A stretch of DNA of 64,000 nt from Eremomyces bilateralis CBS 781.70. Its lineage: Eukaryota. The stretch is from the NCBI GenBank assembly GCA_010015585.1, contig ML975160.1, one strand, 5' to 3'. Shown piece after piece: positions 9,183 through 41,396 of this stretch. Each line of letters starts with the position of its first letter. The stretch's first letter is position 1. Below the pieces are notes generated by a model that was not told the origin of the DNA, searched no databases, and was given only the letters and a program-made list of their open reading frames with translations. The translations under genes and the position numbers were made by a program.

Positions 9183-9814
9183 CTAAGGATTCCAAAGTGT
9201 CAATTGAAGATATACGGTATCAATCCTGTCTCTATCAGCATGCATCCAAGCCGTTCTCATCCAAAGCCGTACCATTGCCCATGCTTGTGCCCGACTTGCT
9301 TCAGATGTCCAACCTGTTTGAACCCGAAACTTTCATAGAACCTCGCCAGGCCCCATCCGCCACCTCTCCCAGTCTCGTTCAAGGACATGCAGGCAATAAC
9401 CTGCCGGATCCGAGTATCCTCATCGCGTGGGACGGGGATATACTCGGGAAACCGTTCCGGATTCTTCAAGATGTCAATGAGCTGCGTCAACAGCGCGCTG
9501 CCAACTCCTTGTCCGATGTGATCGGGATGGCAGAACAGTGTCAGCTCTACCGTGTGCATATAACCGCCTTTTGCACCCCGAAATCCGGAAACGGAAGCAC
9601 AGCCTAAGTTCTTCCCATGTGCATCGATGGCAACGATGTATGGAAGTCCACTCGCTATCACGTTATTGTACCCTTGACGAACCTCGTCCTCGGATTGGGC
9701 TTCCAGGCGGAATGTGATGAGAGTGTTATGCACATAGTGTTCCAAGATCTCAGTAAGGGCTTCGCAGTCCGATTCATTGGCTGGTCTCAGAGTAAAGTCC
9801 AGCTTCTCTGCCAT
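9183..9814 (-). CDS. GNAT N-acetyltransferase, phosphinothricin acetyltransferase (Pat/YncA)-like
   Basis: LRPANESD..ILEHYVHNTLITF, HTVELTLFCHPDHIGQGVGSALL, FYESFGFKQVGHLKQVGHKHGQW. Intron 9272-9226 yields terminal WIDTVYLQLTLWNP*. Confidence 0.88.
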
Positions 9815-10339
9815 GTTTCTGGGAATAATTATAAGGATGAGGAATAGGATCACTCTCAGATAAACAATAGAATCAGGATAGAATTGAGGAATGAATCACA
9901 GCCTAAGGAAGCACTTGCGTAGGTAGGACACAGCGGTTATCTTTTATTACCTGATGTGAATCCATCTCCGTAATCCGAACTGATTCGCTCCTTGTATCTG
10001 ATTGGCAGATAAGTTGAATGCGGACTTTCATGTGTTCAGAACTGCAGATTCCGATCAGCCACGCCAAGTTGCTGGAATTAAATACGGGCTGTTCCGCCGA
10101 TACTAGTTTAGTTAGTACGCTGTACGGAATATCAGCAAAAGGAGCCAGAAGAGCCAAAAGACATGGGGTCCTCCGCTTGGAATATTTTCCTCTGCGTTCC
10201 CAGACTCCCTCACCTGCTCTCTCCATTATCATTCACCAACCACCAGCTCTCTCCCTCACACTCATCTGATGCATCTTCATGATCTAATTGTCTATGCCCC
10301 ACCAATCCACCCTCTTTAAATTCTTTGGTGAAAACCAGA

Positions 10340-12236
10340 ATGCGGCAGACTCAGATATTCTCTGGGTCGTCGCACCCGCGCCTGGTTGAGGATATCTGCG
10401 ACTTGCTGGGCCAAAAACCCGGTGATGCCACGCTAGGAAAATTCAGCAATGGCGAGACGAGCGTCCGGATACGTATGATTGCCATTGTTCCGCCTAAGGC
10501 ATGAGTGGTATATGGACGGTTGGCTGATGGATGGACAGAGACTTCGATACGCAATCAGGATGTGTTCATCGTGCAGAGCGGAAGTCAGAAGTGCGTGGCT
10601 GAGCTCGTGATGCGCTGCCAACCATTGAAGCTGACGACAAGTATAGGATCAATGACAGCGTAATGGAATTGCTGATCATGATCTCCGCCTGCAAAGGCGG
10701 TTCCGCCCGCTCCATCACCGGTTTGTCGTTCCTCCCCTTCGTAGACCATCGATTGAACCCGGCCTAACCGTCCTTCAGCCGTTCTACCTTACTTCCCCTA
10801 CAGCCGGCAATCCAAGAAAAAATCCCATCGCGGCGCCATCACCGCCCGTATGCTCGCCAACCTCCTCCATATCGCCGGCGTCAACCACGTGATGACAATG
10901 GACCTACACGCCAGTCAGATGCAGGGGTTTTTCAAGTGTCCCGTGGACAACCTGGTGGCCGAGCCATTGATTGCGAGGTGGATAAAGCAGAATGTGGCTG
11001 AGTGGAATCAAGCGGTGGTGGTGAGCAAGAACCCAGGAGGGACGAAGCGAGTCACGAGCCTAGCAGATGCACTAAAATTGAGTTTCGGGATCGTCACGAC
11101 GGATCGGAGGAGGTTTAATACAAGTATGTGGACGGATCAGAGCATGACCGGAAGCTTCATGCTGGAGAGACTCGTCGATGGGGAAGATGGGCAAGATGAC
11201 GAGAAAGACGAGGAGCAGCCACGATCCAATCCGATGTCACCCCCTGTTCTCCCGCTATACGCACCCGATCGAAAACCTGAAGGGGCCATCAATGCACGAA
11301 GACCCCCAGCCCGTATGCCAGGCACTCCTAGCAGAATGCATGCGAACCGCGATTCCGATGTCCCCAGCTCCCCCCTCGCCAAATCCACCCTCCCATCCTC
11401 CTCCCACAGTTCTGCTTGTCCGTCACCGTTGATGCGTAGCCAAACCGCGCCAGCGACCGGGACCAACTCCCCACCATCTGACCACGAAGAAGAATTCATC
11501 GACGAGGTAACCATCCCCCACCACCTCTTCGCATGATACGTTCACTCCGAATGATTAGAGTATCGTCACTAATATACCCAACCTTCAGCGGGCCCGCGAC
11601 GTCATCCACGGCCGCTTCATCCACGGCCACATCGTCGACGACGACGACCCCTCTCCGGCCTTCTCCGCCACCTCCCACAGCAACACCCCCTCCCGCCACC
11701 GCGCGCTCTCCGACCTCCGCGACGACGACCCCATCCCCGACCACATGATCTCCTCCACCCTCTCCGTCGCCAGCAGTATTTACCCGCGCGAGCGCGACCC
11801 GCACGGCCTCGGCGGCAGTGGCGACGCGGAGGCGTCCTCGGAAGAAGAAGAAGACGAGCTGCGCAACCCGGAGCTCGAGACGACGATCACGCTCGTGGGG
11901 AACGTGCGCGATCGCCCGGTGTTCATCGTCGACGATATCATGGACAAGGCAGCGAGCTGGGTGGCGGCGGCGGAAACGTGCGTGAAGCGCGGCGGGGCGA
12001 CGCGGGTGTACTGCATTGCAACGCACGGGATCTTCGGGGACGAGAGCCTCGAGGAGATCGAGGCGTGCGAGTGCATCGATAAGGTGGTGGTGACGAACAC
12101 GTTCCCGATCACAGAAGAGCGGGCGCGGCGATGTAAGAAACTGGTGCAGTTGGATGTGAGTCGGTTGTTGGCGGAGGCGATCCGTCGGAACAAGCATGGG
12201 GAGAGTATGAGTCGGCTATATATGCATTACGATTGA
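10340..12236 (+). CDS. PRS1: Ribose-phosphate pyrophosphokinase, Prs1-type subunit with long non-homologous insertion
   Basis: Introns 10473-10538, 10591-10646, 10721-10778, 11507-11588. Motifs KFSNGETSVRI, PYSRQ, HRGAITARMLANLL, DLHASQMQGFF, SKNPGGTKRV, IVDDIMD, THGIF. Confidence 0.93.
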
Positions 12237-14205
12237 TGAACGGGAAATACAAGAGGCGGGAGAGCAGGCGACGAAGATCGCGATGTGGTCAATGATGCGG
12301 AGATGCATTTCTCCATGACAGCATAGCGAGGTGTCTCCGGCGCTGGCAAACCTTGACTTCAACCTTCCATGCGGTTTAGACGCTGACTGGCCCTCCGATT
12401 TCTCTAGATGCATTTGCTGTTAGATGCAAATCACGGAACTGACGATTGATATGCCTCCCTGCCTTCCACCTTGCCTTTCGTGCTCCCGTACTGATTCAGG
12501 TGGTTTCAGGCATCTGCCGCAGAACCATGACACACCAACGATGCAGATTTTTAGATCTGCAGGGACCTTTCATCAATGAGAGTCGTCCTTAACGGAGCGT
12601 TGGGAGATTGAAGAGGCGAAAGTTTCTTTCACTTGAGATTGTTCATTTCTGCGCTGTCATTCCATTCATGGACTGCGCAGGCTTAGACGACTCATACATC
12701 CATTTATGTTTAATTAACTTCTGGTCCGGTTGTGCGCATGTCAGGGATTCAGTGCTTGATACCAGTGGGGAGTTGAAGTCCTATCATGCTATCTATGCAA
12801 TAATGCGATGTACCATCCCTCGGGATGCCTTTCTGTACCCACCGCCACCTATTCCTAAATACAAATCTTAAGTTTGATTCGAACGGCTGCGATTGTGCCC
12901 TGATGAAGTTCACTGTCAACCAGTCTGTTGAAACAGATATCTGGCCGAAGTTGTCTACGATGCACTGAGCGTGGCCTCTCAGCGTAGGTATATAGTAGAA
13001 TGAGAGGTCAGGAAGATGGTATGCGGTGTATTTTGGCAATCTTTTGGTCTTTGGCTGATGCGATGACTGGCATTGGTATATATCACGCTGGACCTGGCTT
13101 CATTGCGACCTGTACTTCCCACATCAGGGGACTGCATGCTGGAGAGATTCTGATATTAAATTCGGCTGACTCATTGTTATAAACTTATAATAGTACATGT
13201 TTACTATACTGAGAAATAGAATGCCCCTCCTGATATCTGTATATCCATAATTGTGTAGTACCGTCTTCCAAGTAAGAGATACAACGAAGGGAAACGGTCC
13301 TTGCGGAGAAATTCGAATCTGAGCGAATGAGTATGAAACGAAAAGTTATGGATGCGCCAGTTCCTTAGTCCTCGCGGACAGTCCGTATAGAGTATATGAC
13401 GCCCAGCAAACATATAAACAAGAGGCCCGTCGGAGGGACACGATATATCAACGGTACATGTGTGATGAGAGTTGAGCGTGGCCTCCAAATACTATCAGAT
13501 ATTGATTGACCTCCTAGCCATAAGACTCATGCGCCAAGATCCTTCGACGTCCTTCCACCCAGTCAAAGTGGTAAAAGTCGAAACAGGAGCAGAGGAAACG
13601 CGATTCTTCATAGAGGTATAGAAAGGGAGTCGTATATCGCTTCTCAGAACGCGATTCAACAAACAGGAAATTGAACGGGGGGGAGACGTTTGGCATAATA
13701 TACGAGAAAGGGGAATCAAGATCGTGGGAATTATGGAATTCGTCTGGTTGCTTTTGCAGCACGGTCAGTGAGACCAAGTCCAATTTACCGTTAACTCCGT
13801 TCCGTCCTGCCCAGCAGAAGAGAAAACAATTGAGAAAGCGCTGTGGAAACGAGAGCGCCTGAATCATAGAGAGTCCATTGAGTCGTGCGAAATCAAGGAT
13901 GTGATGTAAGATGTTGATCGAATGGGGTCGGGATGGCGGGAAGCCGAAGGTGGGAACGTTGCCATGGAACAGGGAGAAGGGCCGGCCGGGATTGAACGCC
14001 CTGGTCGCACGCGTAGCCCAAGCGAGACATGGCTGCATTGTCGATCCTCGCATGGGGAATCCGCCGAAGACTCGAAACCAATTTGGGAGCCCGCTGCAGG
14101 CAGTCCTTCATCGTGGATTCATGGGATTTTTCTTTTCTTTTCTTTTTCGCTTCAAATCGTCCCGAACACCGTGCGGGGGCGTATCGTTTTGGTGGTTCTA
14201 ATGCG

Positions 14206-14428
14206 CTGCAAATCGCCGTTAGCGTGAACTGCGGAAACGTCGATGATTTCGAGGCTCGCATGAATGGGATTGGCGTGGTGCATGGAAAACCGACTTCAGC
14301 GTCGATCTGGATCTTGCATCGATGGTGCCATGGTGCAAGCGGCGGGTAACGCAGAAGAAAGGGCCTGCAGCGGGACGTTGCAGCAGCACAACCAGGAAGA
14401 GGACGAACAAGGAATTGGTGGTACGTAC
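14206..14428 (-). other. Predicted 3'-UTR intron of the microprotein gene
   Basis: Donor GTACGT at 14428; branch GCTAAC followed by GGCGATTTGCAG acceptor ending at 14206. Donor lies 49 nt after the stop at 14478. Confidence 0.6.
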
Positions 14429-14477
14429 CGACTGTCGATCTCGAACGATTTTGGCTGGGGGATCGAAGAGCAACAGC

Positions 14478-14648
14478 TCATGCCTTTACAGAACATGGTC
14501 GGCAAGCTTTGAATTTGCATTTGGTGCATTCCCAAATGTACCAATGTGGTCCAGAGTGACACAAGTTGCAATTCCAGAGGACGATGGTCGTGTCGGATTT
14601 GATCATAACGAATTCATGCGAGCAACTTGCAGAATGGGCAACCGCCAT
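14478..14648 (-). CDS. 56-aa Cys/His-rich microprotein, stand-alone C1/ZZ-like zinc finger (absent from the ORF track)
   Basis: MAVAHSASCSHEFVMIKSDTTIVLWNCNLCHSGPHWYIWECTKCKFKACRPCSVKA*. Pattern CxH..CxxC..H..CxxC-x4-CxxC; strong start context (ATCATGG); upstream TATA box and long AUG-free leader. Confidence 0.8.
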   Translation of the reverse strand: MAVAHSASCSHEFVMIKSDTTIVLWNCNLCHSGPHWYIWECTKCKFKACRPCSVKA

Positions 14649-14775
14649 GATGCCGTGGGATGGATTGGTTTGAGGTATGAGAATTAAGGGGCAGGAAATC
14701 GTCCTCTGCAGAATGATTTGGATGTTTGCTTTCCTGGATAGAAAACTCCGGAAAGCAGGCCTCGCAACTCGTCAT
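14614..14775 (-). other. Overlapping out-of-frame uORF (53 aa) in the microprotein leader
   Basis: First AUG of the predicted transcript, weak context (TTCATGA). Encodes MTSCEACF...HHGGCPFCKLLA* and overlaps the first 35 nt of the main ORF. Confidence 0.5.
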
Positions 14776-14837
14776 GAAATTCCAATTGTTTGATAGAGAG
14801 CCGCGTTGACGCAAATGACGAGGGGTTGGCGAAATAC

Positions 14838-14906
14838 CTGGAATGGCAACCAACTTCAGTTCAACGAACGTATAACAAAGTGATATATATTAAAATAGAG
14901 ACTGAC
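14838..14906 (-). other. Predicted 5'-UTR intron of the microprotein gene
   Basis: AAG|GTCAGT donor at 14906, AT-rich body, CCATTCCAG acceptor ending at 14838 (69 nt). Branch point imperfect. Confidence 0.5.
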
Positions 14907-15624
14907 CTTCACAACTGCGTGCACCAACACTTCGGTCGTCTTCTCTCCGCTCCTAGCACAAGTGCTGGACAATTGGTTGAACTAATCAAAAGAAAATTCA
15001 CCGGATCCCGCCTCAAGAAACGTGCGTGGCTCGATGTCGATCGAGGCGGTCGAGGAGCCGTTCCACTGGGGGAGGAAAGCTGGAAAGGCCCAAAAAACAA
15101 TGCGAGAACTGAAGCCACAGAAAAGGACTGCGAGTCAGCACCACAGCTGCAAGGTCTCAGTCGCAAGGACGGGATTTAATAGCCAACGAATAGGATCGCG
15201 ACCGTTTCTCTCTATCACCAATTGTCCCTTGACAAGGCTAGTGGAGACCGGGAGTAGTGAGGAGCAGAGGGCTGAACGATTCAAGCACGACACTTGAATG
15301 GGTGAGGGCGGTTCGTGCCAACAGCAAAAGAAATGACAGCTGCACAACTGCACAGCGGATTTATTTGGGGAATTGGATCAAATGTCGTTGGCGTGTGCCG
15401 CGCTGCTTTAAATCTTCTTTTCTAATAGAACGGAACCCAAATGGACCGGTCTGAACTGTAATGGAAGTTTGACTTGGATGCGAGGAGGCCTGGAGGCTGA
15501 TTGGTCCACAGCAAATTCCCTGAGAATGGACTGGGTAGAGGTCGATGAGGAGAAGATGGCGGACGACGAGGTCAGTCAAAACTCGGTTTGATCGAGATTG
15601 GAGAAAGAGGACATTGGTATGGAG

Positions 15625-15633
15625 CTTTATATA
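15625..15633 (-). promoter_or_regulatory. TATA box of the microprotein gene
   Basis: TATATAAAG on the minus strand, followed by a CT-rich initiation-like tract. Confidence 0.6.
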
Positions 15634-18600
15634 TCAGACCTTCCCTATACCTCAGCCCTCCGTACGTCGGTGGCCCAGGTCGATCGAAGGACAACCGTAG
15701 GTATGAAACTGTATTCGTCCAAGGCCTCCATTTGGATCATCAAAGACCGGATCCCCGAAACGCCACGATGGCATCGGGTTGACACAAACCGAGCCTCCCC
15801 CATCCTCCGGTCTTCCAGAAGGGGTTCTTCCATCTCTCCCCGGCCCGTCTTTCTATGCAGAGTGCCAGTCTAACAAAGAACATCCGTCTGTGCCGTTGAG
15901 GGTACAGATAGAGGGGTGAGAAAGCAGAAAGAGGTTAATCATCACCCTGTCGGGGTGGTGCGTGCGCGGATGTAGGCGACAGGACTCAGGACTGTCAGGT
16001 TTCTAGAAAGAAAGTGCTAACTGCTAAGTCAAACGGGAATGTGTGGATGACAGGGCGTTGACAGATCCGGAAAACCGTCCCACTTCACAGCCCAGACCAG
16101 GGCCGAAGCTTGGGTGGTCATACATTTAATACTGAGTACGGTACCTTAACGGCATGAACCCTGCTCCAATCTCCTTGTAAAGGGGGCCATCCTGGAAGGA
16201 GGTCAGTCTGGGGTCAGGACAGGAGTCCACGGCCAAAGCAGATCAGAATAAACAGGAACTGTCGTTTACGGAAGAAGACGGCTATCGAGAATGATTCAAG
16301 TGAAGTTGAGGCAGTCGGTCGAACAACCAGGGGTTGGCTGATGGCTCAGAGACAAAATGTCCCATCAGCCGCTGCATTGGGTTGCAGACTTGCAGGCTTG
16401 CAGCTCCAGCTTCCAAGTCGTTGATCCTTGTCGAAATCGTGCATTCGTTAAGATCTATGGTTACGTTCCTTGTCTTCGACGAGCCGTCAAGCGCCGTCCC
16501 CATGTTGTCAGTCATCAGTCTTGCTGTCAACTCTAGTCAATCCCTAACAAAGGCAAAATGTTCGATTTCCACCGGTAGGCGTCCTTTTCATCCGATACCT
16601 CCTCGCTGATGATGTTGGTGTGACAACAGCTTCGCTTCAGTCCAAGATGGAGGACGATCAAAAAGGAGAGAATCGTGTAGTGGACGAGTTTAGTGGGCCG
16701 TCAAGGATTGACCCTCAAGAGTCAAGACTTCTTTGACAATACCTGCATGACAGCATCCCATTCCCATTCTGCTTCCTTTTGCTGCTCTCGTGCAGTGGGA
16801 ATCCTGCTCGTGTTCTCCCCGCTGTAGGCCAATCGGGAGCTTCGGGGAAATGATATAAGAATACCAAGTACCTTGTGTTGGGTATCTCGAGTTCACACCG
16901 CCCGTTCGATACGACGGATCAGGCGCCGAATCAAGAAATGCCCTGAGTGTAAAGGAGTGAGGATGGGCTGATCCGATGGGACGGTGGCGTTCAACGGCTC
17001 CAACCAGAATGGCCGAATCGCTAGCCAACTCGCCATTCGGGAACACCACTAACCCGGTAGTGTGGAACATGGAAAAGGGCTTGAAGAAGCATAACTGCTA
17101 ATACGAGATATAAATTTACAGGCGCATAATTTGGCGATGAATCGCCGTCTGGTGGATGTGTAAGTTGATATCCTCAGGTGGCTTAGGCCCCAATCTCACA
17201 TCATCACCAGACCTCATCACATCAATTGACTTCAACGACGACCAAGGCTCAAACAGTCAAGCTAAAAGTACTCCATGTCACAGGAAAATTTGCCCGTCTC
17301 ATCGACACTGTACGTGATCGCGTTGAATTCTGTTCCATCAACTTCGGGTTTCGGCAAGCATCCGCTAAATAAACTGTGTTAACTTTTAACTCTACCCCTT
17401 CTCAACACTGTTTCACCCTCAGTCCCTCACTTTCTGATCCTCGATTGTAATAGCGAGGAATCTCACACTCTCTGAATCTCCGATATCTTACCGTATGGTA
17501 TTTTGTCCCGCTCTCCAATCACATTTAAATCCTGGATGGCGGAGACTTGAATGGCTCTAGGCATCGAGAAGAGCTCGGATCTCGCTACCCCGGCCCGTGT
17601 GGCTGGTGGTTGTGCTCTACATGCAGCGACATGCAGAAGCCGCTGAAAATGTGGGCTTGCCGGCTCATTATCAAGCAGCACAGATTCATTATGCACTCGG
17701 GGCTTTGCCGCTTTGGAGTCGTCAGCAGGGCGCGGTTCCTACCCGTGAGACATCGGTGGATTGGGTGGCTACTGCGCTTGCAAAGGACCCAATGTTTGCA
17801 ATCAGGGAAAGATCGGAGCCTCACGGTCAATCGGATATTGCAGAGAAATCAAGACCTCTTGAGAGCAAGTATTGTACTCCTTCAACCGCAAAGTACGACG
17901 TATATCATGATCGTTACTAAACAATTTAGCATGCGCGGTTCCGATTAAGTACTCACTCTATCTCTATATGGTTCAAGATGGACGTTGTACGACGAATGCA
18001 TTCGCTACACAATCCTAGAGTCACCTAACCGATCCAACGTGTCCTGTCTTCGAACACACCACTGCTCAAACCCTGTGCAGATCGTTTCTCATCAGTCACT
18101 GGGCCAAAATCCGTTTTGTCACTATCAGGGATGATTCAAGCTAGGTGAATCGTTTCTTGCCATTTTGCCAAATGCTCGACCCACGATCGTCGACCACTAT
18201 CAGCAAGCCAAATGACGGTTGTAAGCGAAAAGCAGGCAAGACATTGACCATTGGAGACTGGAGCAGATATGCTTGGTAGCAGCAAAGCTATCATTTCGTA
18301 TGGGATGAGATCAGCTGCCCATGGCCCTTTTTCGTTCCGATATCGTCGGGAATCTGGGGAGGGCGTTTCCACATGAAGTGTCCAACATATGCCATCCCTG
18401 CCACTTCTTCTTAAAGGAGCTAATATTTGGTCAAGAAGCGGAGATGCTTCCTTTGTCAGTCGTACCGTGAAGAAATTGACTCACCTCGATCACTAGAATC
18501 CGGCGAACATCCTCAATATGTGGACAGTTATCACGCCCCCTTCTACGACCCTGGAATGCGGAAGTTACCGTTAGTATTTGGTCCGCAAGAGCATAGTATA

Positions 18601-19964
18601 TCTGATCTAATATCACCCGCTGGGATCAACCTCACCATATTCAGACAGGAGAGATGCGAGGTAGGATCGAGGCGTGTTTAACCACCGCCATTGAAGTCGT
18701 ACAACGATTCACTTTTTTTTTTTCAGGCGCAGCTCGAAAACTAAGACATGATATCGGCCACTCAAGCCCCTCTCCGGATACAAGGTCTTGAGTTTCGGAT
18801 TGATCTACAGTGCGTCGGTACATTCCTCCATTGGAGCATCGGAGAGGCATCTGATGTCCCTTCGTGCTGTTTTATGCAATCTGAGACTGTTACGGCGTTC
18901 TGAAACGTACTGCTCGGCCCCCACACACTTTGAACTTACACTGAAGAGTATGTAGATCAACTACGGTTAACAAGATCTTCAATTAAGAGCAGCGATTGGC
19001 ATAGTCTAAGGCGCCCCAGAGGGAAGCAGCGTATGCATCTGGACGAAGATTGCTCGCTGAATACCAACAGTGTGACAATGTGTCGTTTTTCTTGTCATGT
19101 GTTATTTCGAGGGTGTTTGAAGTCGTTTATTCCCTGTCCAGTCTTGTTATATTCGGTTCTCCAGGGGAAACTCAAATCATTCGCAAACTATGAGCCTTCC
19201 GTCACAGTGAGCTCCATTTGCCCCACCTCGATTTTCTTCTCGTCAAACATATCACCAAGGAGAATTTCATCTCAACTGTTCAACACGCTGCTTCGAATCC
19301 AGGTCAACCCTTGTCCGAACCCCGCCACAGTTACACAGCATGGTCGATTCAGGCGGTCCACAAATGCCAGATCCATGCGGCGACGACTTGTCACATCGTT
19401 GTACGGTGAGACGTCGGCAACCGGCAGCGAGACGCTGTGTGCGCCGAATCTGCAGTAATTTCCCGGTTCGCGGTTGAGTGGCGTGGGACGGAACGGTACG
19501 GCGCAGGATGGACATGCAGAAGGACGACCTGGTGCAATCGACTAGGGCACGGCGCTGGTAAGGTGATATGTCATTAATCATTATGCTATCATTGGACTTC
19601 GGTGCGATCCGAAGAATCTGAACTGAGGTAGGACCGGCATCTATGTCGGATGCGATTGGGGTCGGCAGATATTTGGAGCCTCGATCCCTCTATCTATCCG
19701 TGCTGGACGACGCAACCCAACGAATCGACAGACTCTCGGCATTCTCATCTTTTCTGCCCATATACAGGCACTCAAGTTCTGCCACTGTCATTTCTCCGTC
19801 CCGCGGGATTCCCTAAGATCTGCTCTGATCTTGTCATTTCTTAGACTGGCATCCTCAGAGAACGTCCGACATCAAGCCAGCACAGCCGTCCACCAAAGTT
19901 CCCGGCTAGCCTAGCTCTCTCATCTCATGGTCCATTCCGACCCAATATCCACGGCCTCCACTTT

Positions 19965-20288
19965 TCATTGAGCCCCAGGAGCCGTACGGCTGTACGACCT
20001 CCGATGCCTAGAGATCCCGTCGCCCTCTACGCGGAGTGTCCCCACCTCAGACATATCGCAGGTGGCGGGTGTATCGCAGGTTGTGCCGGCACTATGGTAG
20101 CTCGATTTGCATTTGGAGCACTGTTTGGTGAACGTTTTGGAGAAAAATGACGTGATGATGGGTCCCAGGACGGAGACGATGTAGACGGTGGGGAGAGGGA
20201 GGGGGAGGGAAGTTCGTCGATGTAAGGGACGGTTTGGGTTTATAGGCGCATAGGGAGCCGATGTCTGAGATGAGGGATTGGAGTACAT
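19965..20288 (-). CDS. Hypothetical 107-aa protein with a hydrophobic segment and a four-Cys cluster
   Basis: MYSNPSSQ...PTVYIVSVLGPIITSFFSKTFTKQCSKCKSSYHSAGTTCDTPATC...; candidate 5'-UTR intron (GTAAGT at 20474 to CAG at 20405). Confidence 0.5.
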   Translation of the reverse strand: MYSNPSSQTSAPYAPINPNRPLHRRTSLPLPLPTVYIVSVLGPIITSFFSKTFTKQCSKCKSSYHSAGTTCDTPATCDMSEVGTLRVEGDGISRHRRSYSRTAPGAQ

Positions 20289-20336
20289 TTCTGGAAATTT
20301 TGATGGAAGCTTATGTGAGGTAATATTGATAGGAGG

Positions 20337-20395
20337 ATTGAGATTTAGATGACTGAGATTTGGATGGTTGAGATCTGGATGATTGGGATTCGATA
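20337..20395. repeat. Degenerate 15-bp tandem repeat, about 4 units
   Basis: gattgagatttagat / gactgagatttggat / ggttgagatctggat / gattgggattcgat. Confidence 0.7.
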
Positions 20396-21623
20396 TCAAG
20401 GAGTCTGATGCGCTTTGTTCGGGTTTGATAATGTTTATCGATCATCATACAAATGCCTTCACTCTTATACTTACCTCGAAGGTCAATCACCACTCCCTAT
20501 TTCTAGTTTGACGTCCGAGTTCGTCCATCAAAGGTTCGGCATCATGTTTGTTAGCCTATCCTCCCCCGACGCCAAGATTCCTCTCGCGGTTCTTTCCCGA
20601 TGGAGCTCAAAATGCAAAATACATATATGCCGGCACATCAATGTAGATGGCAGTACATCGTCTCAAAGATTCCTCTCGCGATGCTTTCCCAAAGGAGGTC
20701 AGACTTGCCAACGCGCCTCGAAGCCGGCGTATCAGAGCTCCCGCTAGAGGGAGAAATATGCACAAAAATAGCTTTTGGTAGGGGATGGACCCTGGAAGCG
20801 GTAGAGTAGCTTAGGCTATTCCACATCCTGCCGGGCGTAGTCCGGACGGCCCCCAAATTCGATGCATGGATTTTTGAGAAGCGCGCTTCGAAAATCGAGA
20901 TGCATTGAGACGCAGGATATATGTGAGGTGATTCCGTTTCGTTTTACCATCTAAGCGAGATGCTCAATGACGATCCAAATTCTAATTTCTATTGTTAGCA
21001 AATCGCAACACTTGGACTCACGCTTGGAGCTGCTTGATGTTGTGTTGCAAATGCTGTTTTAGCCCTTCACTTTCAGCCTTGTTGATCATGACGCTACGGA
21101 CTGTATGGGGCGCAGCCAACACCGTAATTCTGGCCCCTTCTGACCTCCACACTACAACACTGCGTTCTGCGAGGCAGAATGCTGGGCGAACACTGTTAGG
21201 AAGAAATGAGGCTCCTTTTCATGAGGCTCAGCATGTTGATTGGGCCGCGGAGGCGCAATTCACAAGCGCGAGGTGGCGTAGATGTCTCGATCAAGCAGTA
21301 TGTCGCGCTCGTTTCGTGAGGATGACTGATTACCATTGACCGTATAAGAAACGACCAGGTCATTGGTAAGCTGGCAACACGGGGAATATGATAGATAAGG
21401 AGTTTCTGCCCATCTGAACATACAGAAGAAGGGATATTACCTTAAGTTTATACTCCTCGATGCGACAATTGCTTTGCATCCCTCAGTCTCTACCATTGTC
21501 GACAATATTCATCCGCGGTCTCTAGAGTATACGACAATTACAACTTCCCGTCTACGAGATCCAACAAGCATCACGAACATCACCTATCGAGTCCCTCCTT
21601 TCCCTCGACGATCGACAACCACA

Positions 21624-22328
21624 ATGCAACAGCTCCCCCCCTTCCAAACCATCTACATCTCCACCTCCCCCTTCGACATCCACGTCTCCCGCCCGCGCCC
21701 CCTCCTCCTCACCTTCCCCCAACCCCAATATCCCTACGCCCCGCCGCGCCCACCCCCCCCCGTCTTCTCCACCTCCTACCCCTCCTACGGCCGTCCCTTC
21801 TCCAGCAAACCCACCGTCGCCATCCACCGCGGCGACCCTTCCGGCCCCGTCATCGGCACCGGGCACGCACCTACCCTGGGATCTACATGGAGCATCGCCT
21901 TCTTCGGCCTCGGCGGCGAGGGGAAGATGAGCTCGGAGATGTTCGCGCAGAGCTACACGGCGTTTCTACCGGCGGCGCCGCCGTCGGTGGGAGGAGGCCT
22001 GGGGTGTTTGACGTGGAAGCGCACGAAGCAGCAGGGGAAGGGGATGAAGTGCGTGGACGAGGGGGGGAACGTGGTGGCGTGGTTTACGAAAGCGCGGGGG
22101 ACCTTGTGGCGGCCGAAGGAGGAGATGGGGACGCTGGAGGTGCGGAATGGGTTGAGTGCGGCGGTGTTTGAGGCGATGGTGATCTCGTGGATCGTGGTTG
22201 GGGAGAAGATGCGGAGGGAGAAGAAGGGGCGGGAGGCGGGGTTCGANNNNNNNNNNNNNNNNNNNNNNNNNNNNNNNNNNNNNNNNGGAGGTGGAGGTGG
22301 AGGTGGAGGTGGAGGTGGAGGGGAGTGA
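21624..22328 (+). CDS. Hypothetical protein, DUF6593/tubby-C-like, with Gly-rich tail interrupted by an assembly gap
   Basis: SSKPTVAIHRG..GPVIG, LTWKRTK, MKCVDEGGNVVAWF, GTLEV..AMVISWIVVGEKMRR. Ns at 22247-22286 precede (GGAGGT)n, so the C-terminal frame is uncertain. Confidence 0.7.
   Translation: MQQLPPFQTIYISTSPFDIHVSRPRPLLLTFPQPQYPYAPPRPPPPVFSTSYPSYGRPFSSKPTVAIHRGDPSGPVIGTGHAPTLGSTWSIAFFGLGGEGKMSSEMFAQSYTAFLPAAPPSVGGGLGCLTWKRTKQQGKGMKCVDEGGNVVAWFTKARGTLWRPKEEMGTLEVRNGLSAAVFEAMVISWIVVGEKMRREKKGREAGFXXXXXXXXXXXXXXGGGGGGGGGGGGE
22247..22286. other. Assembly gap (40 N) next to a (GGAGGT)n microsatellite
   Basis: Run of n in the sequence. Confidence 0.99.
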
Positions 22329-34946: not shown

Positions 34947-37900
34947 TCAATCCCTTCCAAGACACACGCCAACAGCAGCGCTCAATCCCAGCACTTTGAG
35001 CCGACCCTTCACCGCCGGTGCACCACCAAACGCAACCCCATCTTCCCACCCTCGGACGACGTCCTTCAGATCGCGCGGGAACCCTTCCAGCACCACGGTG
35101 CCGACAGGGACGAAGGGGCGGTCATCGACCGACACCGCGAGGATGCTGTAGTCGTATGCGAACTGCAGCGCCGCGGTGAACAGATGCGGGGAAAATTTGG
35201 ACGCGGGGCCGGGGAGGCTGTGAGGATTGTTAGCATATCGAAGGATAGTGATAGACGAGGACGTGCGGCGACGAGAGGAGAGGAGCAACATACACATAAA
35301 TCTCACACCACCCATCCACCACCCAAACGCTCTCCGCATCCCAATCCCGCACCAAACACGGCTTCAACTCCCTCACCTCCACCTCCCCCCTTCCCACCTC
35401 CCCAACCCGAAAACATCTCACCCCCCACCGCTCCGCCAACGGCTTCTGCCGCCAACTCTCTGTCATCCGCGGCAACAGCCGCCGCACCCGTTCCACATCC
35501 CCCCGCTCTCTCGCCCACTCGTCAAACACGCTCAGAAACCGCCCGTCCTCCTGGCCCCCTTCCACCTCCACCACCTCCGCCCCAAGATCCATCGCTAAGT
35601 CCATCGCAATCAACCGCGCGCATCCTACCTCCTCCGCATGCGTGCCCTGGCCCTTCCAGAGAAACAGGGTTTTCACGGTCGGCGCGTGCACAACGTACGC
35701 GAACCCGTTACACAGTTTCCGCACGCTGATCGGCGCCGTCTCGTCGAACGCCACGTGACCGAGATGCCGTCGTGCGCAGAGCACGAATGGGCCTTTCTTC
35801 ACGCCGACAGCGGGGTCAACGGCACCGTCAAACGAGATGACGACGCCGCCCAGCGCGGCGAACAGCGCGGGCGGCTCGCGGCCCTGGGTGACGACGGTGA
35901 GAGGGGTGGCGTCGGCGCCGCCGAGCTGGCGGACGGCGGTGCGGGCGAAGAGTTGGACGTCCTCGGCGGTGGAGGGGGGAATGGCAGCGCCGAGGTGGAG
36001 GAAGGCTTCGAGGAGGGTTTTGGGGGAGGAGGGGGTGGTGAACCAGTGGAGGATGAGGGAGATGGAGGTGGAGGAGAGGATGTGGTCTTTGCCGGGGGGA
36101 GGGGTAGTGAGTTTGCCGGTGGGGGAGAGGAGGGCGACTTTGGTGTGGTGGGTTCTGTGGGGGGAGGGGGGGAGAGGGTCGGTTTGGAGGAGGGTGAGGG
36201 CGTCGATGTCGGGGTTGGTTGGTGGGGAGTGGGGGAGGGTGCCGAAGAAGGTGGTGAGGAGGGTCGAGGCTTCGGCGTGCGCTTTTGATGGGGAGCGTTG
36301 CGGTTGTGGGTTTGGAGATGGTTGGGAGGGGGTGGAGCGCGCGGGCGTAATGAGCTCGGTTGATACGGGTGGTTTGTGTGGAGAGGGAGTGCGCGGTGGT
36401 GGTGGTCGCATCTCAGGGACCGCTGTTGGTCGTGAGAAGTTCCTCCTGACTGTTGGGCTGAATTGAGGGAGTACTGGTTCGCTACTCTTCGATTTCGTCT
36501 CCCTGTCCTCGCTTGCGCGTGACATAGTTGAGTTGAATGGCTGTGCAGGTGATCCATCCACTATACCTTTTGGCTTCTCTGCTTGCGGTTGTATTGGCTT
36601 CGGTTTCGACGTCGGAGATGCACTAACCGGTTCAATCTGCGAGGCACGTTTCTCGAACACTCCCACGCGACCCTTCACCGGACTCTGGCGGCCGTTAGGA
36701 GGCTGACCGTCGCTCATCGAATGCCCAGGTGCCTTGCCATTGTTCTCAGCAGTGTCGATCTTCGCAGACATGGTCATGATTGGTTTCGGCGAGATAGCGG
36801 GTCTATCGACACTTTGCGGCTTCTTAGACTCCACGGGCTTGAACGTCGATGGCGATAAAACCTTTGGCGACGATGCCGGAGGAGTGGCCATTCCGGACGC
36901 TATGTTCTTCGCCCGGTCTGCGACCATCGCTCCGATGGAGAAGGAACTTTTTTGCGCGGGGGTGGGGGCAGTGGGCTTGGTGACGCCCCGTGACGCCTGT
37001 TCTGGTTCTGCGAATTCGGGCGACTTCGCGAGCTGCTTTGCGGAGCTCGGCGTGTTCGGCATCGCGTCAACATCGGCCTTCTTTAGCGGTTCCTCCTTCG
37101 CCGCCTCGGTCTCAGCGCTTGGGGTTGGGTCTTGATTCCCCTTGTCCGTCGCACCCGTCTTCGGCGCCCTCCTCTTCGGCCCTCGTGCCCTCCCCTTCGT
37201 CATATGCGTCAACCCCGTCTCCTTCTTCGCTTCAGGTTGTCCACCCGGCCCCGAGTCGCTGCTGGATCCAGGGGCTCTATTTGCGGGCGGCGGGCCGCGA
37301 GCTAACATCGCTGCAAGACCAGGATTGAACCGCCCTGCGAGCTTGGATGCCGGCTTCGCAGTCGCCGAAGAGGATGAGTTTATCGCTGATGGGGTCGGCA
37401 GAGTCCGTGGTTCAGGAACGGATCGCGACTTGAGGAGAACAGGCATCGATTCTGTTTCCGTGTCGACCTTCGCGGGGACGTCTCTGGAAGCAGGCTTCTC
37501 TGTGGCGATTGTAGCAGACTTCGAGGTGATAGCGGGGGGGCGAGCAGGCTTTGAATCTCTCTGCGCCTCCCATGACCGCACCGGGGCTACCGTTGTTACT
37601 GGCTTCTCCCACGAGTTCTTACTCCTGATCGACGGCTTCGCCTCCTCCCTATTCTCCTTCTCCCCGCCGGTCTTCTCCTTGCTATCCCTCTTCCACGTCC
37701 CTCCACTAACACTCCCACCTCTCCCCAACCCTCGCCCCACCGCCAACGCCTCCGGCGTCTCCTCCCTCTCCGCCCTCTTCTCCTTCTCCGCATTCCGCAC
37801 ACTCCCCTGCTCCTCGACTTTCTGCCGCATCTCGTCCTTCTTCCGCAGAATGTCCTCCTTCAGCTCGTCCTTCCGCTCGCGCGGCTTCGGCCCCCCCGTG

Positions 37901-39961
37901 ACGGCCAGCCCGGATTTTCCGCGCAGGATGTTGTTCCGGAAGGTGTCGGGGGCGACGTAGTTCTTCGTCTCGGTGCGCTTGAGCTTGAAGGCGGCGGATT
38001 GGAATTCCGAGAGTTGGGAAGTGGAGGTGGAGGTAGAGGGGGCGCGGGTGTTGCGGGATTTGAGCTGGGAGCGGAAATCGGTCGGGGCGGGACTGTTGGA
38101 CGAGGGGGGGGGTTTGGGGGAGGTGGAGGGTTTGGGTCGGGTGGGTGGCGGGGTGGAGGAAGTGATTGAGGTTGGTCGGGAGGGAGGGGAGTTGCGCTGG
38201 GGAACAGGGGATTCGGGTGACTTTGCGCCGTCATTGGGTAGTTGTATGATCGCAGAGTTGGAAGTCGGTACTGGCTTCGAGGCCGGCACTGGCTTGGACG
38301 CCGGCATCGGCTTCGAGGCCGGCACTGGCTTCGAGGCCTGCACTGGCGTCGACGTCACCGAAGCTTTCTGCTGCTTCGCCTTCGCAATCTCCGCCATCCA
38401 CGCCGGCTGCGCCTCCTCCTCCCTCACCTTCGGCGACTCCTTCCTCTCCAGCGCCGAATCCAGCCAACTCGCCTTCGTCGGACTCCACCGCTTTGACGGG
38501 CTCGGCGGCGGGGACCTCTGTTCCTCTGCCTCTGGCACGGTCGTGGAAACCGTCGCTACGGGGGCGCCGTAGCTCGAACTCGGCCGAGAATTGCTCGCCG
38601 GCTCCGGAGGAAACCGAATCTCGCTCCGCGATGAGGACGGCGCGTGGCCGAGCGCAGGGCGGCCGGTGGCGGAGGCGGTGGATCCGGTGCGCGCGAGCCC
38701 GGGGGTGGCGCTCCAGCGTTTGCTCACGGAGTCGGAGCGCTTCAGCATGGCGGACTGGACGAAGCCGCCGGCGCCTTTGGTGGGCGAGGGTGGGCGGTTG
38801 AGAAAGTTGCTGACCGTCTCGGCGGTGGAGGGGGGGGTGAATTTCTGGGCGGAGAGGGTGGGGAGGGGGGAAGCACGCGATGGCCGGTCGAGGATGGATT
38901 CTTGGCGGATGGAACCGGCGCGGGAGGGGGAGGGCGAGCGGGAGGGGGGGATCGGGGGGGGAGATGAGGTTCCTGGGTCGATTGGGGCGGTGGGAGATGT
39001 GTTGCTGGATGACATTCCAGGTAATCGGAATCGTTCTGAGCCGCTGGTCGCCGTTTTGGTGCGGGTGTGTTCTTCGTTTTCCTGTCCACGGCGAAACGCC
39101 GCATTACCAATCCCACGATCCGAAGTCTGCTTGAACCAGGTTGGATCTTTCGAGCCCAGCGACTTTGCAATGTCCTCTCGAGAGATTTCCTTCTCGGGGC
39201 TGGACGGTGGAGGCGTCCCTAGCGGAGAGCCACTTGCCGGCCCCGCAGTGGACTCGGTCGCTGCCATGCGCAGTGAGAGCGGTCGTCGTCCATCTCGTGA
39301 AGAAGGCCGTTGCTGCCATGAGAGCGTACCGGATCGTGCGAGCGCGACACTGCTCATCCGCTTGATATCTGTATGTCCGTCGCCTGAGGTTTGGGAATAG
39401 GAGGAGGATGGCCGTGCTGGGGGAGGCATCTCGCCCGGGCCATTGAGGCGGGCAAGGGCTTCGTCGACGGCCATCTCACGCGTTTCTTGCGGTTGGGTCG
39501 CGGGGGTAGGTGCGAGGATCGGCTTGGAGGATTCGGGACTTGCGATTTTGGATTTGATGGATTGAGGGGTCGTTGCTGCGGATGATTTTTCGGGTGAGAG
39601 GGATCGTGCACGCTCTAATTCATAAGTTGGCTTGCGTCAGTGAGGTTCTGGTTCAATGGTTCAATATGTTTTGCACAAGGCGGGTTTGAAGACGAAAGTG
39701 GGAGGTGATGAGCAAAGTGAAAAGAATCGTGAACTTTGTCGCGTCTAGTTGCGTCCTGGGCGTGTTGCATGGAAAAGTATTCCCCTCTAACACGTATAAA
39801 CGCCTCCACTCACCTTGTCGTCGAGCCAATCGTTCACTTCGATCCTTTGCAATCTGTTCCTCTAACTTGCTGAACCGCTCTGCGTCTTCCTGGTCCCGCT
39901 TCTCACCCAGCTCTCGAATCTTCAGCAGGAAATCGGTCGGGTCCAAGTCGTTGTCCGTCAT
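34947..39961 (-). CDS. DUF4045-domain protein with long Pro/Ser-rich region and C-terminal gelsolin/villin-like repeats
   Basis: Exons 39961-39814, 39614-35294, 35217-34947. FLLKIRELGEKRDQED..R, GTLSWQQRP, KDPTWFKQT, GGFVQSAMLKRSDSVSKRW, LTHMTKGRARGPKRR; gelsolin-like QGREPP.F, LFLWKG, EVEGGQEDGRF. Confidence 0.85.
38266..38340 (-). repeat. 18-bp coding tandem repeat (ASKPVP-type, 4 units)
   Basis: Translation ASKPVPASKPMPASKPVPASKPVP. Confidence 0.8.
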
Positions 39962-41396
39962 TGTTTTGGAACCAAGGGAGGTAAACAGACCAACAAGGCG
40001 ATGTCTGGTACTCGGATCCGGTATCTATGGGAGGACCGGGTGTTGTTGCGTGTGGGAATAGGATAGATGCTTGGATCGGTCCCAATGGAGGTCAGGGGGA
40101 TTGATGTGGGCTGAAAACAAGGATTTCACCGCCCGGTGGAACAACGGAGATGCGGAGCGATGCTGGTGCATATGGATACTGGACGGTGATGGAGGATGGT
40201 CGGATTGCACAACAGCAACACGAACCTTTGTGCAGCAATTTTCTCCACCACTTCCTAGAGATAGTCTAGTGCATACAAGAATCTTACACGTCGTGTATTA
40301 CCGTCTTACCGTATCCTGTATCACCAGTACTACAAGCATTTGCTGAGTGATGCTCTTCACGATCGCGTGTTGTTGTCGCCTTATTCGCCTGAGGCAACCA
40401 TTTCCATTGCCGGCGCCACGCAGCACTTAGTCCGTCACGATGATCAAGGCGGAAGAGGGCATGGTGTTTGTCAACTCAGTTCAGGGTCTAGAATCGAAAT
40501 TATACCCTTTCCCATGTAATCTTGAGAATTGTGCATGATATTTATATTGGGAGCGTTGACACTAGGACTCCCACCCGTAGAGCTCGATGGTCGACCAGCC
40601 AGACAAGGAGCGAATTGTAATTACAGCACCAAAGCAGCCGACGAATCAAAGCCCTGGGATTTCAACCTCCGATGTCTCTCTCCTCTGGTTGTTAACGAAC
40701 AACATACCGAGCCAACTCCTAACTCCCAATTCCTTTCCAGGTCTCTGGTTCCAGTATTGACCTTCTCTTGATCAGAGGGGTTGTTGGTTAATGCCTCTGC
40801 ACGAGGAGGGACTTGGCATCGGACCCTCTCCGTGGATGGACTTCTGCATCGTGAGGACTGGTAGCGTTGTACAGTCAAGTTGAACGGCAACCACCCTCAA
40901 CAGCCTGGATGGCTTTCATTATCTGCATTCCTTATGCTTATCGATACATGATTTCAAAGGATCCTAACCGTGCCATGATGAAAGGCCATGCTGTTCATCT
41001 TCCCGGCATTCACCTCGAGGACAGGTCAAGGACGAGATCGGGTTACAGACATAGGTATTAGTGAATGGAAGCAAGTGAGGTGAAGAATGTTAATGTGTTA
41101 TCGAAATTACCTAATTATTAACTGGCCACCTGTACTGTCCTCGCGGATCGCCAAGTTTGGTAGGAGGCCATTCACTCAGTGCCGACATATAAATTATTTC
41201 CATCTCCCATAACACGCACAACTTACCTTCCTTCTCTCACATCCTTACATTTCTCTATCTCTAGATTCTGCACCGCATAAATCTGGAACTTTTTCGGTTA
41301 TTTTATTTCCACTGTCTACTGCATCGTACCTTCCTAGTACCCCTCATTCTTATCGAAGTCCAATTCAGTCGACTCACACACTCAGTGGCCTAAGCA

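Follow-up and report, generated by a model that had tools for sequence, protein, structure and literature searches.

In the 64-kb window analysed here (the whole stretch of Eremomyces bilateralis DNA, 64,000 nt long), the minus strand contains no ATG over 836 nt lying directly 5' of a small ORF of 56 codons. The locus raises the question of whether this emptiness marks an mRNA leader kept clear of start codons, or whether it reflects a chance gap, a hidden coding region or part of a much longer transcript. An earlier note on this DNA had read the stretch as the selected, TATA-driven leader of a microprotein gene. We consider it probable that the 836 nt make up the greater part of the 5' untranslated leader in an mRNA encoding a 56-aa, C1-like zinc-finger microprotein. 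The evidence comes from one RNA run, from orthologous loci and from the sequence itself.

A conserved microprotein gene

The coding sequence (14478–14648, minus strand) specifies a conserved 56-aa Cys/His microprotein, its limits following from relatives, a profile search and the context of the start codon. The protein is 65–67% identical to relatives in named Dothideomycetes; named members also occur in Sordariomycetes, and all are annotated as hypothetical. A profile search with the 56-aa sequence retrieved 218 cluster representatives at E ≤ 0.001, with 109 at E ≤ 1e-10. Seven cysteines and one histidine are conserved in the family. The AlphaFold model has a mean pLDDT of 82.6, and its best matches in the PDB are C1 domains (Munc13-1, the RAF CRD and PKC), the matches being weak (E-values 0.02–0.6, TM about 0.6). 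The ORF thus encodes a microprotein conserved in Pezizomycotina, for which the model predicts a C1-like fold. It is conserved in its own right, as judged from the relatives and the profile search, and the claim in the earlier note that the leader independently backs the gene is borne out.

All relatives keep a Met-Ala start, also internally in over-extended gene models. The in-frame sequence upstream of it is unconserved in 24 orthologous loci, where stops often occur within 3–10 codons, and the spliced RNA of the window has an in-frame stop 41 codons upstream of 14648. Because Met-Ala is conserved, and the frame upstream is unconserved and carries stops, the start of the coding sequence is assigned to 14648, where an A at −3 and a G at +4 surround the ATG. 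Pfam assigns long ORFs elsewhere in the window to sulfate permease, GNAT, PRPP synthetase, PGAP1, HET and DEAD helicase families, a set that points to a filamentous ascomycete; no ORF reaches 200 codons between 12.2 and 21.4 kb.

Database models of the family are often 60–140 aa longer upstream, running through the AUG-poor leader with unrelated N-termini. Over-extended or fused models are found for proteins P0005, P0010–P0013, P0016, P0018, P0019, P0024, P0027 and P0034. In the Aureobasidium uvarum model, the microprotein is fused to a neighbouring CT20-domain protein, the internal Met-Ala being kept. AUG-poor leaders let gene models run far upstream or fuse with neighbours, so that the family is mis-called by predictors.

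The spliced transcript

Over the 19 kb examined, run X3 contains 11 canonical joints (GT..AG or CT..AC), among them those marking introns in the genes for sulfate permease, GNAT and PRPP synthetase; runs X1 and X2 contain none of these. Because the canonical spliced joints are absent from X1 and X2, X3 is RNA, while X1 and X2 behave as DNA; the spliced joints are the sole basis of this identification, and X3 is a single RNA run in the form of contigs. Such contigs show neither 5' ends nor local abundance, and merge overlapping transcripts under one depth each. Contig 19 (9224–12883), for instance, combines the minus-strand GNAT gene with the plus-strand PRPP-synthetase gene, CT..AC and GT..AG introns occurring together; since it joins genes on opposite strands, X3 contigs evidently merge neighbouring transcripts.

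The whole 836-nt stretch and the coding sequence lie on one spliced minus-strand X3 contig (record 20, 3703 nt), which covers 17159–14907, 14837–14429 and 14205 to about 13165. Its lower end is inferred from the length of 3703 nt and agrees with the depth bins. Both joints of the contig point to the minus strand, and the X3 depth bins correspond to the contig minus its introns, so there is no intron-retaining contig. Minus-strand transcription of the stretch, as postulated in the earlier note, is thus seen in RNA, and the intron it had proposed at 14906–14838 agrees with an X3 joint to the base.

This leader intron (14838–14906, minus strand) is 69 nt long, begins with GTCAGT and ends with CAG; its joint is present in X3 and in neither X1 nor X2. 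Together with the leader body it makes up the ATG-free stretch (14776–15611, minus strand). The leader part of exon 2 (14649–14837, minus strand) contains the sole uAUG of the proximal leader. A second intron, also with an X3 joint, interrupts the 3' UTR (14206–14428, minus strand, 223 nt); its donor, GTACGT, lies 49 nt past the stop codon and it ends in CAG. Exon 3 (about 13165–14205, minus strand) adds some 1.04 kb of 3' UTR, which is thus long. Upstream of the ATG-free stretch, RNA cover continues over 15615–17159 (minus strand) at normal AUG density.

Promoter region and transcription start

The sequence TATATAAAG, which the earlier note had reported at 15633–15625, is present there (15625–15633, minus strand) and is the candidate TATA box of a proximal promoter. 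The box, TATATAAAGCTCC, stands at −985 from the start codon and resembles the box TATATAGC(T/C) of the orthologs; the minus strand has no other TATAWA from 14890 to 18500. Of 19 orthologous loci, 16 (representing 11 of 14 independent clusters) have all sense TATAWA sites of the 1500 nt upstream at −246 to −519, as one sense TATATA that mostly reads TATATAGC(T/C). These positions support a TATA box as a conserved feature of the family, and in this form the proposal of a TATA-driven promoter stands.

The ATG-free desert begins 11 nt past the end of the TATA box. The last ATG before the gap (15612–15614, minus strand) is found 19 nt past the T that opens the box and is probably upstream of the transcription start site. 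Taken together, the position of the TATA box and the AUG boundary would place a proximal start near 15530–15600. A proximal start at a second TATATA, inside the leader intron at 14889, is conceivable; this element is 241 nt before the start codon, just below the −246 to −519 range of the orthologs, and the intron is without any X3 contig cover.

A different account, which we regard as rather unlikely, places the transcription start at or beyond 17159, with transcription reading through the TATA region. The locus would then produce one very long mRNA, or two isoforms in the manner of the LUTIs of budding yeast: a form with a leader of about 2.4 kb and 27 uAUGs, poorly decoded, and an AUG-free form from the TATA box that would be the second, translatable isoform, or would be absent altogether. 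The X3 contig is indeed continuous from 17159 to 14907, without a break at 15600, and some transcription crosses the proposed proximal promoter, since X3 cover reaches 17159. The 5' extension contains 26 ATGs (in 1548 nt, the ATG at 15614 included). Only 46 nt free of RNA separate 17159 from the adapter-marked end, at 17206, of a plus-strand contig, with a plus-strand TATAAA at 17109, and LUTIs are described in budding yeast (PMC8153250). However, the continuity of a contig demonstrates neither a single molecule nor its abundance, as the merged opposite-strand genes of contig 19 illustrate, and there is no minus-strand TATA near 17159. A sole start at 17159 would also leave unexplained why AUGs stop exactly at the TATA box and why the leaders of the orthologs are depleted of them. 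The cover of 15615–17159 may represent a 5'-extended, AUG-rich isoform, or else a separate RNA, divergent or arising by read-through, that was merged into the contig.

The ATG-free stretch

The trinucleotide CAT is missing from the plus strand over 14776–15611, exactly as the earlier note had stated, leaving 836 nt without a minus-strand ATG between flanking plus-strand CATs at 14773 and 15612. Neither strand of the window has a longer gap free of ATG or CAT, and ATG is the only one of the 64 trinucleotides with a count of zero inside these 836 nt. Above 15611, the density of minus-strand ATGs is one per 60 nt over the 1548 nt considered, against none in the 836 nt below; the 500 nt upstream of the start at 14648 contain one sense ATG versus ten CATs. 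The composition of the stretch leads one to expect 9.6 ATGs from dinucleotides or 10.9 from mononucleotides, rather than the 13 or so that had been derived from a frequency of 1/64.

None of 20,000 dinucleotide shuffles of the 836 nt was devoid of ATG (minimum 1), a test biased by the fact that the stretch was picked for its emptiness. As a window-wide extreme-value control, dinucleotide shuffling in 1-kb blocks was performed in 1000 trials, of which 73 contained a gap of at least 836 nt somewhere in the window. For this reason the gap by itself is suggestive, not decisive; its place and the relatives of the gene decide. Almost all shuffled gaps of this size arise in the skewed region at 33–40 kb; outside it they were obtained in 3 of 1000 trials for positions 1–33000 and 1 of 1000 for positions 40001–64000.

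That the gap is a functionless product of the pyrimidine-rich composition of the minus strand is very improbable. The strand is 58% C+T, which is in keeping with the lowered expectation of 9.6, the window-wide control reaches 836 nt in the 73 trials mentioned, and a whole fungal genome offers many more opportunities for such a gap. Against this, just 4 of 2000 half-window shuffles outside 33–40 kb reach this length, and the gap is on the sense strand, directly 5' of a conserved coding sequence, inside its RNA and with its beginning at a TATA box. Fourteen independent orthologous lineages, moreover, exhibit the same strand-specific depletion of ATG, and chance is already disfavoured as an explanation.

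Leaders of the orthologous genes

A metagenome scan yielded 44 loci with a microprotein ortholog (L001–L044), forming 19 clusters by upstream sequence. When positions 12000–19000 of the window were compared with these loci by blastn, the coding sequence alone aligned and the leader did not; the leaders were therefore compared by statistics, not by alignment. In 14 lineage representatives, 35 sense ATGs were counted in the region from −500 to −1, where dinucleotide content predicts 84.4 and where CAT, the ATG of the opposite strand, occurs 169 times (Wilcoxon p = 0.0009). The depletion in orthologous leaders, which had been put forward as a check on the original proposal, is thus present. In the nine representatives with long flanks, the window included, ATGs are always fewer at −500 to −1 than at −1500 to −1001 (p = 0.004). 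The density in the orthologs is 0.07–0.43 ATG per 100 nt at −100 to −400 and has recovered to roughly 2 per 100 nt around −900. These counts support the view that the leader is kept AUG-poor by selection, visible across fungal classes.

The longest ATG-free gaps in the orthologs measure 246–603 nt, versus 836 nt in the window, whose proposed leader exceeds those of the relatives two- to threefold in length. Between a point 30 nt past the TATA box and the start codon, 17 leaders contain 19 uAUGs, 12 of which fall inside short predicted introns before the AUG; several are the ATG of a GTATGT donor of these predicted introns.

Most orthologs have a predicted intron of 50–80 nt ending 0–45 nt before the start (L002, L005–L009, L011, L013, L014, L025, L027, L033, L036, L039 and L044), while the leader intron of the window ends 189 nt before it.

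Coding potential and folding of the leader

No protein-coding signal was detected in the leader, as judged from stops, tblastn and the unconserved upstream frame. It is hardly credible that the stretch is read from a non-AUG codon, as an N-terminal extension or a separate conserved ORF: N-terminally extended family models do exist in databases, but they retain the internal Met-Ala behind unrelated N-termini, the upstream frame is interrupted and unconserved as described above, stops are abundant in all three leader frames, and tblastn of 430 window ORFs (from positions 1–30000) against the loci matched only the coding sequence and its shadow frames. Seven small ORFs of the transcript gave nothing above threshold in Pfam. 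The longest ORF of 15615–17159 (126 aa) has no relatives among proteins of 69–221 aa and no Pfam match.

Regarding RNA structure, the earlier note had pointed to small hairpins. The 7-bp hairpin it named, ATTCAAG-n7-CTTGAAT with a 7-nt loop, can be read at 15299–15279 (minus strand), but folding of the 836 nt as a whole is at chance level (z = −0.03), 8 of 20 shuffles folding as well. Rfam gave no matches at E ≤ 1 for positions 13000–17400, and there are no direct or inverted repeats of at least 14 nt in 14400–15900. Tandem repeats in 13000–17500 are limited to three trivial ones.

The upstream AUG and the proposed translation

With the start at 14648, the ATG at 14775 becomes the uAUG of an out-of-frame overlapping uORF of 53 codons (14614–14775, minus strand), which has a T at −3 and stops 35 nt inside the main ORF. 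Conservation of the uORF frame was not detected by tblastn against the orthologous loci. The earlier reading of the stretch as a leader therefore holds as regards selection and AUG depletion and not as regards extent, given that the leader continues past 14776 to the start at 14648 and that 14775 is a uAUG.

In the leader reading that we prefer, the translated mRNA would begin some 30–100 nt past the TATA box at 15633, giving a leader of about 885–955 nt, or about 816–886 nt once the 69-nt intron is removed. Ribosomes would load at the cap and scan the entire leader, and because they must do so, selection would have purged AUGs able to capture them on the way. The remaining uAUG at 14775, in weak context, out of frame and opening an overlapping uORF, would divert some ribosomes and act as a brake, while others would leak past it to the AUG at 14648, which is in strong context. 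Weak-context AUGs are described as leaky in Neurospora and Cryptococcus (PMC7049704). For this mRNA, the start site, initiation by scanning, leakage past the uAUG and any regulatory role, including the translational control suggested earlier, are what we infer. The AUG-depleted leader is independent evidence for cap-dependent scanning translation of the microprotein, as proposed here.

The 3' untranslated region and a possible family architecture

Three features meet in the microprotein mRNA: a uORF, an intron 49 nt downstream of the stop and some 1.09 kb of 3' UTR. The exon-junction rule for NMD, established in mammalian work, sets the limit at about 50–55 nt past the stop, and the junction in the 3' UTR, 49 nt after it, lies at the edge of this range. 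In Neurospora, a uORF, a 3' intron near the stop and a long 3' UTR trigger NMD, the intron in an EJC-dependent way, according to PMC7746235, which cites Zhang and Sachs 2015.

Donor-like sites (GTACGT, GTAAGC, GTATGT and the like) are found 0–50 nt past the stop, or overlapping it, in about 17 of 20 lineages. In L040 and L042 the sequence is GCA TAG|GTACGT, and in L033 the donor overlaps the TAA. An intron beside the stop seems to be typical of the family; the 223-nt one of the window is spliced in RNA.

A bicistronic arrangement, in which a second coding gene would follow immediately on the microprotein in the orthologs, was considered and rejected: 22 downstream ORFs belong to no Pfam family, and cross-lineage matches within about 1.3 kb downstream are multi-frame, reflecting DNA-level similarity of close relatives. 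A conserved gene downstream of the microprotein is encountered in the orthologs only at about 1.3–2 kb.

A wider interpretation, doubtful as it stands, is that the TATA box, the AUG-cleared leader, the UTR introns and the long 3' UTR constitute a family-wide architecture for expressing a very small coding sequence, jointly setting the dose of the microprotein. The leader would measure several hundred nucleotides and contain a 5'-UTR intron, ending in most orthologs 0–45 nt ahead of the AUG, whose GTATGT donor would hide a would-be uAUG. The second intron would lie at or just after the stop, so the 170-nt coding exon would be bracketed by splice junctions. Scanning load, exon-junction marks and NMD might together set the amount of microprotein, and in the species of the window a distal AUG-rich isoform may act as an off state.

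Comparison with known long leaders

The 5' UTR of Candida albicans WOR1 is about 2 kb long, has no AUG-started uORFs and lowers translational efficiency, according to Guan and Liu 2015 (PMC4552353); EFG1, CZF1 and UME6 also have long leaders in C. albicans. Like the leader in the window, that of WOR1 is fungal and, in the wording of that paper, without AUG-started uORFs, and in WOR1 its length is far above the norm of the species. WOR1 differs in that it belongs to a yeast and encodes a large protein, a master transcription factor, whereas the gene in the window is a 56-codon coding sequence in a filamentous ascomycete. Unlike the WOR1 leader as described there, that of the window is spliced and has one overlapping uAUG, and an effect on translation was demonstrated for WOR1 only.

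The leader of Neurospora cpc-1 exceeds 700 nt, and cpc-1 and yeast GCN4 are controlled by uORFs (PMC5487733). The likeness to the window lies in a long leader and in translation that is set by what scanning ribosomes meet, as proposed for the window. On the account given there, however, cpc-1 and GCN4 act through conserved uORFs, whereas the leader in the window is almost free of AUGs and its single uORF is unconserved. With the LUTIs of budding yeast (PMC8153250) the window shares RNA cover that extends 1.5 kb above the proximal promoter through an AUG-rich stretch. It differs from them in that this RNA is seen as one contig, and not as two separate isoforms, switching or repression.

A literature search for AUG-free fungal leaders under such wording returned no relevant report. 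Long fungal leaders without AUG-started uORFs are already known from WOR1, and the microprotein leader is a further case, which reveals no new mechanism. Particular to it are the tiny coding sequence, the family-wide architecture and a length two to three times that of its relatives. What looks like a gene desert here holds a 56-codon ORF embedded in an mRNA that seems to be kept for a purpose, with a leader five times as long as the coding sequence. With its leader, one uORF proposed to be leaky and overlapping, and UTR introns, the locus offers a compact case for the expression and tuning of fungal microproteins.

Other features of the locus

The conserved blocks CTGTCACTGGCTG, GCATAAAGGA, ATGGTATCAC and AGATCTTGC of the orthologs precede the TATATAGC box at fixed distances. 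Such promoter blocks, 40–200 nt upstream of the TATA box, were found in L004, L005, L007, L008, L009, L011 and L033, and are absent near the TATA box of the window. Block CTGTCACTGGCTG, searched for in the window with up to 3 mismatches, gave 12 matches versus 16.6 expected, none of them near the TATA box. A scan for bacterial-type promoters and terminators was uninformative.

The 9-mer CATCCCACG is shared by 5 of 16 lineages, in whose leaders its distance from the AUG varies: it stands at 14662–14654 in the window (minus strand, −14), at −197 in L001, −128 in L004, −273 in L021 and −175 in L040. Variants with one mismatch are present in L008 and L033. The 9-mer may be a protein-binding site in DNA or RNA.

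The runner-up among CAT-free runs of the window measures 769 nt (35640–36408) and is in a region of compositional skew. It falls within a 1468-codon minus-strand ORF (35230–39636) with strong AT and GC skew, and is probably a Met-free low-complexity region of a protein.

On the plus strand, a spliced RNA contig of 4055 nt extends over 17206–21297, with an intron at 17869–17929 (GT..AG) and no ORF of at least 200 codons. It begins at the adapter-marked end at 17206, 97 nt after the TATAAA at 17109, and runs toward a DUF6593-like ORF at 21399–22328. Divergent in orientation from the microprotein locus, this RNA may represent a further leader of great length or be non-coding.
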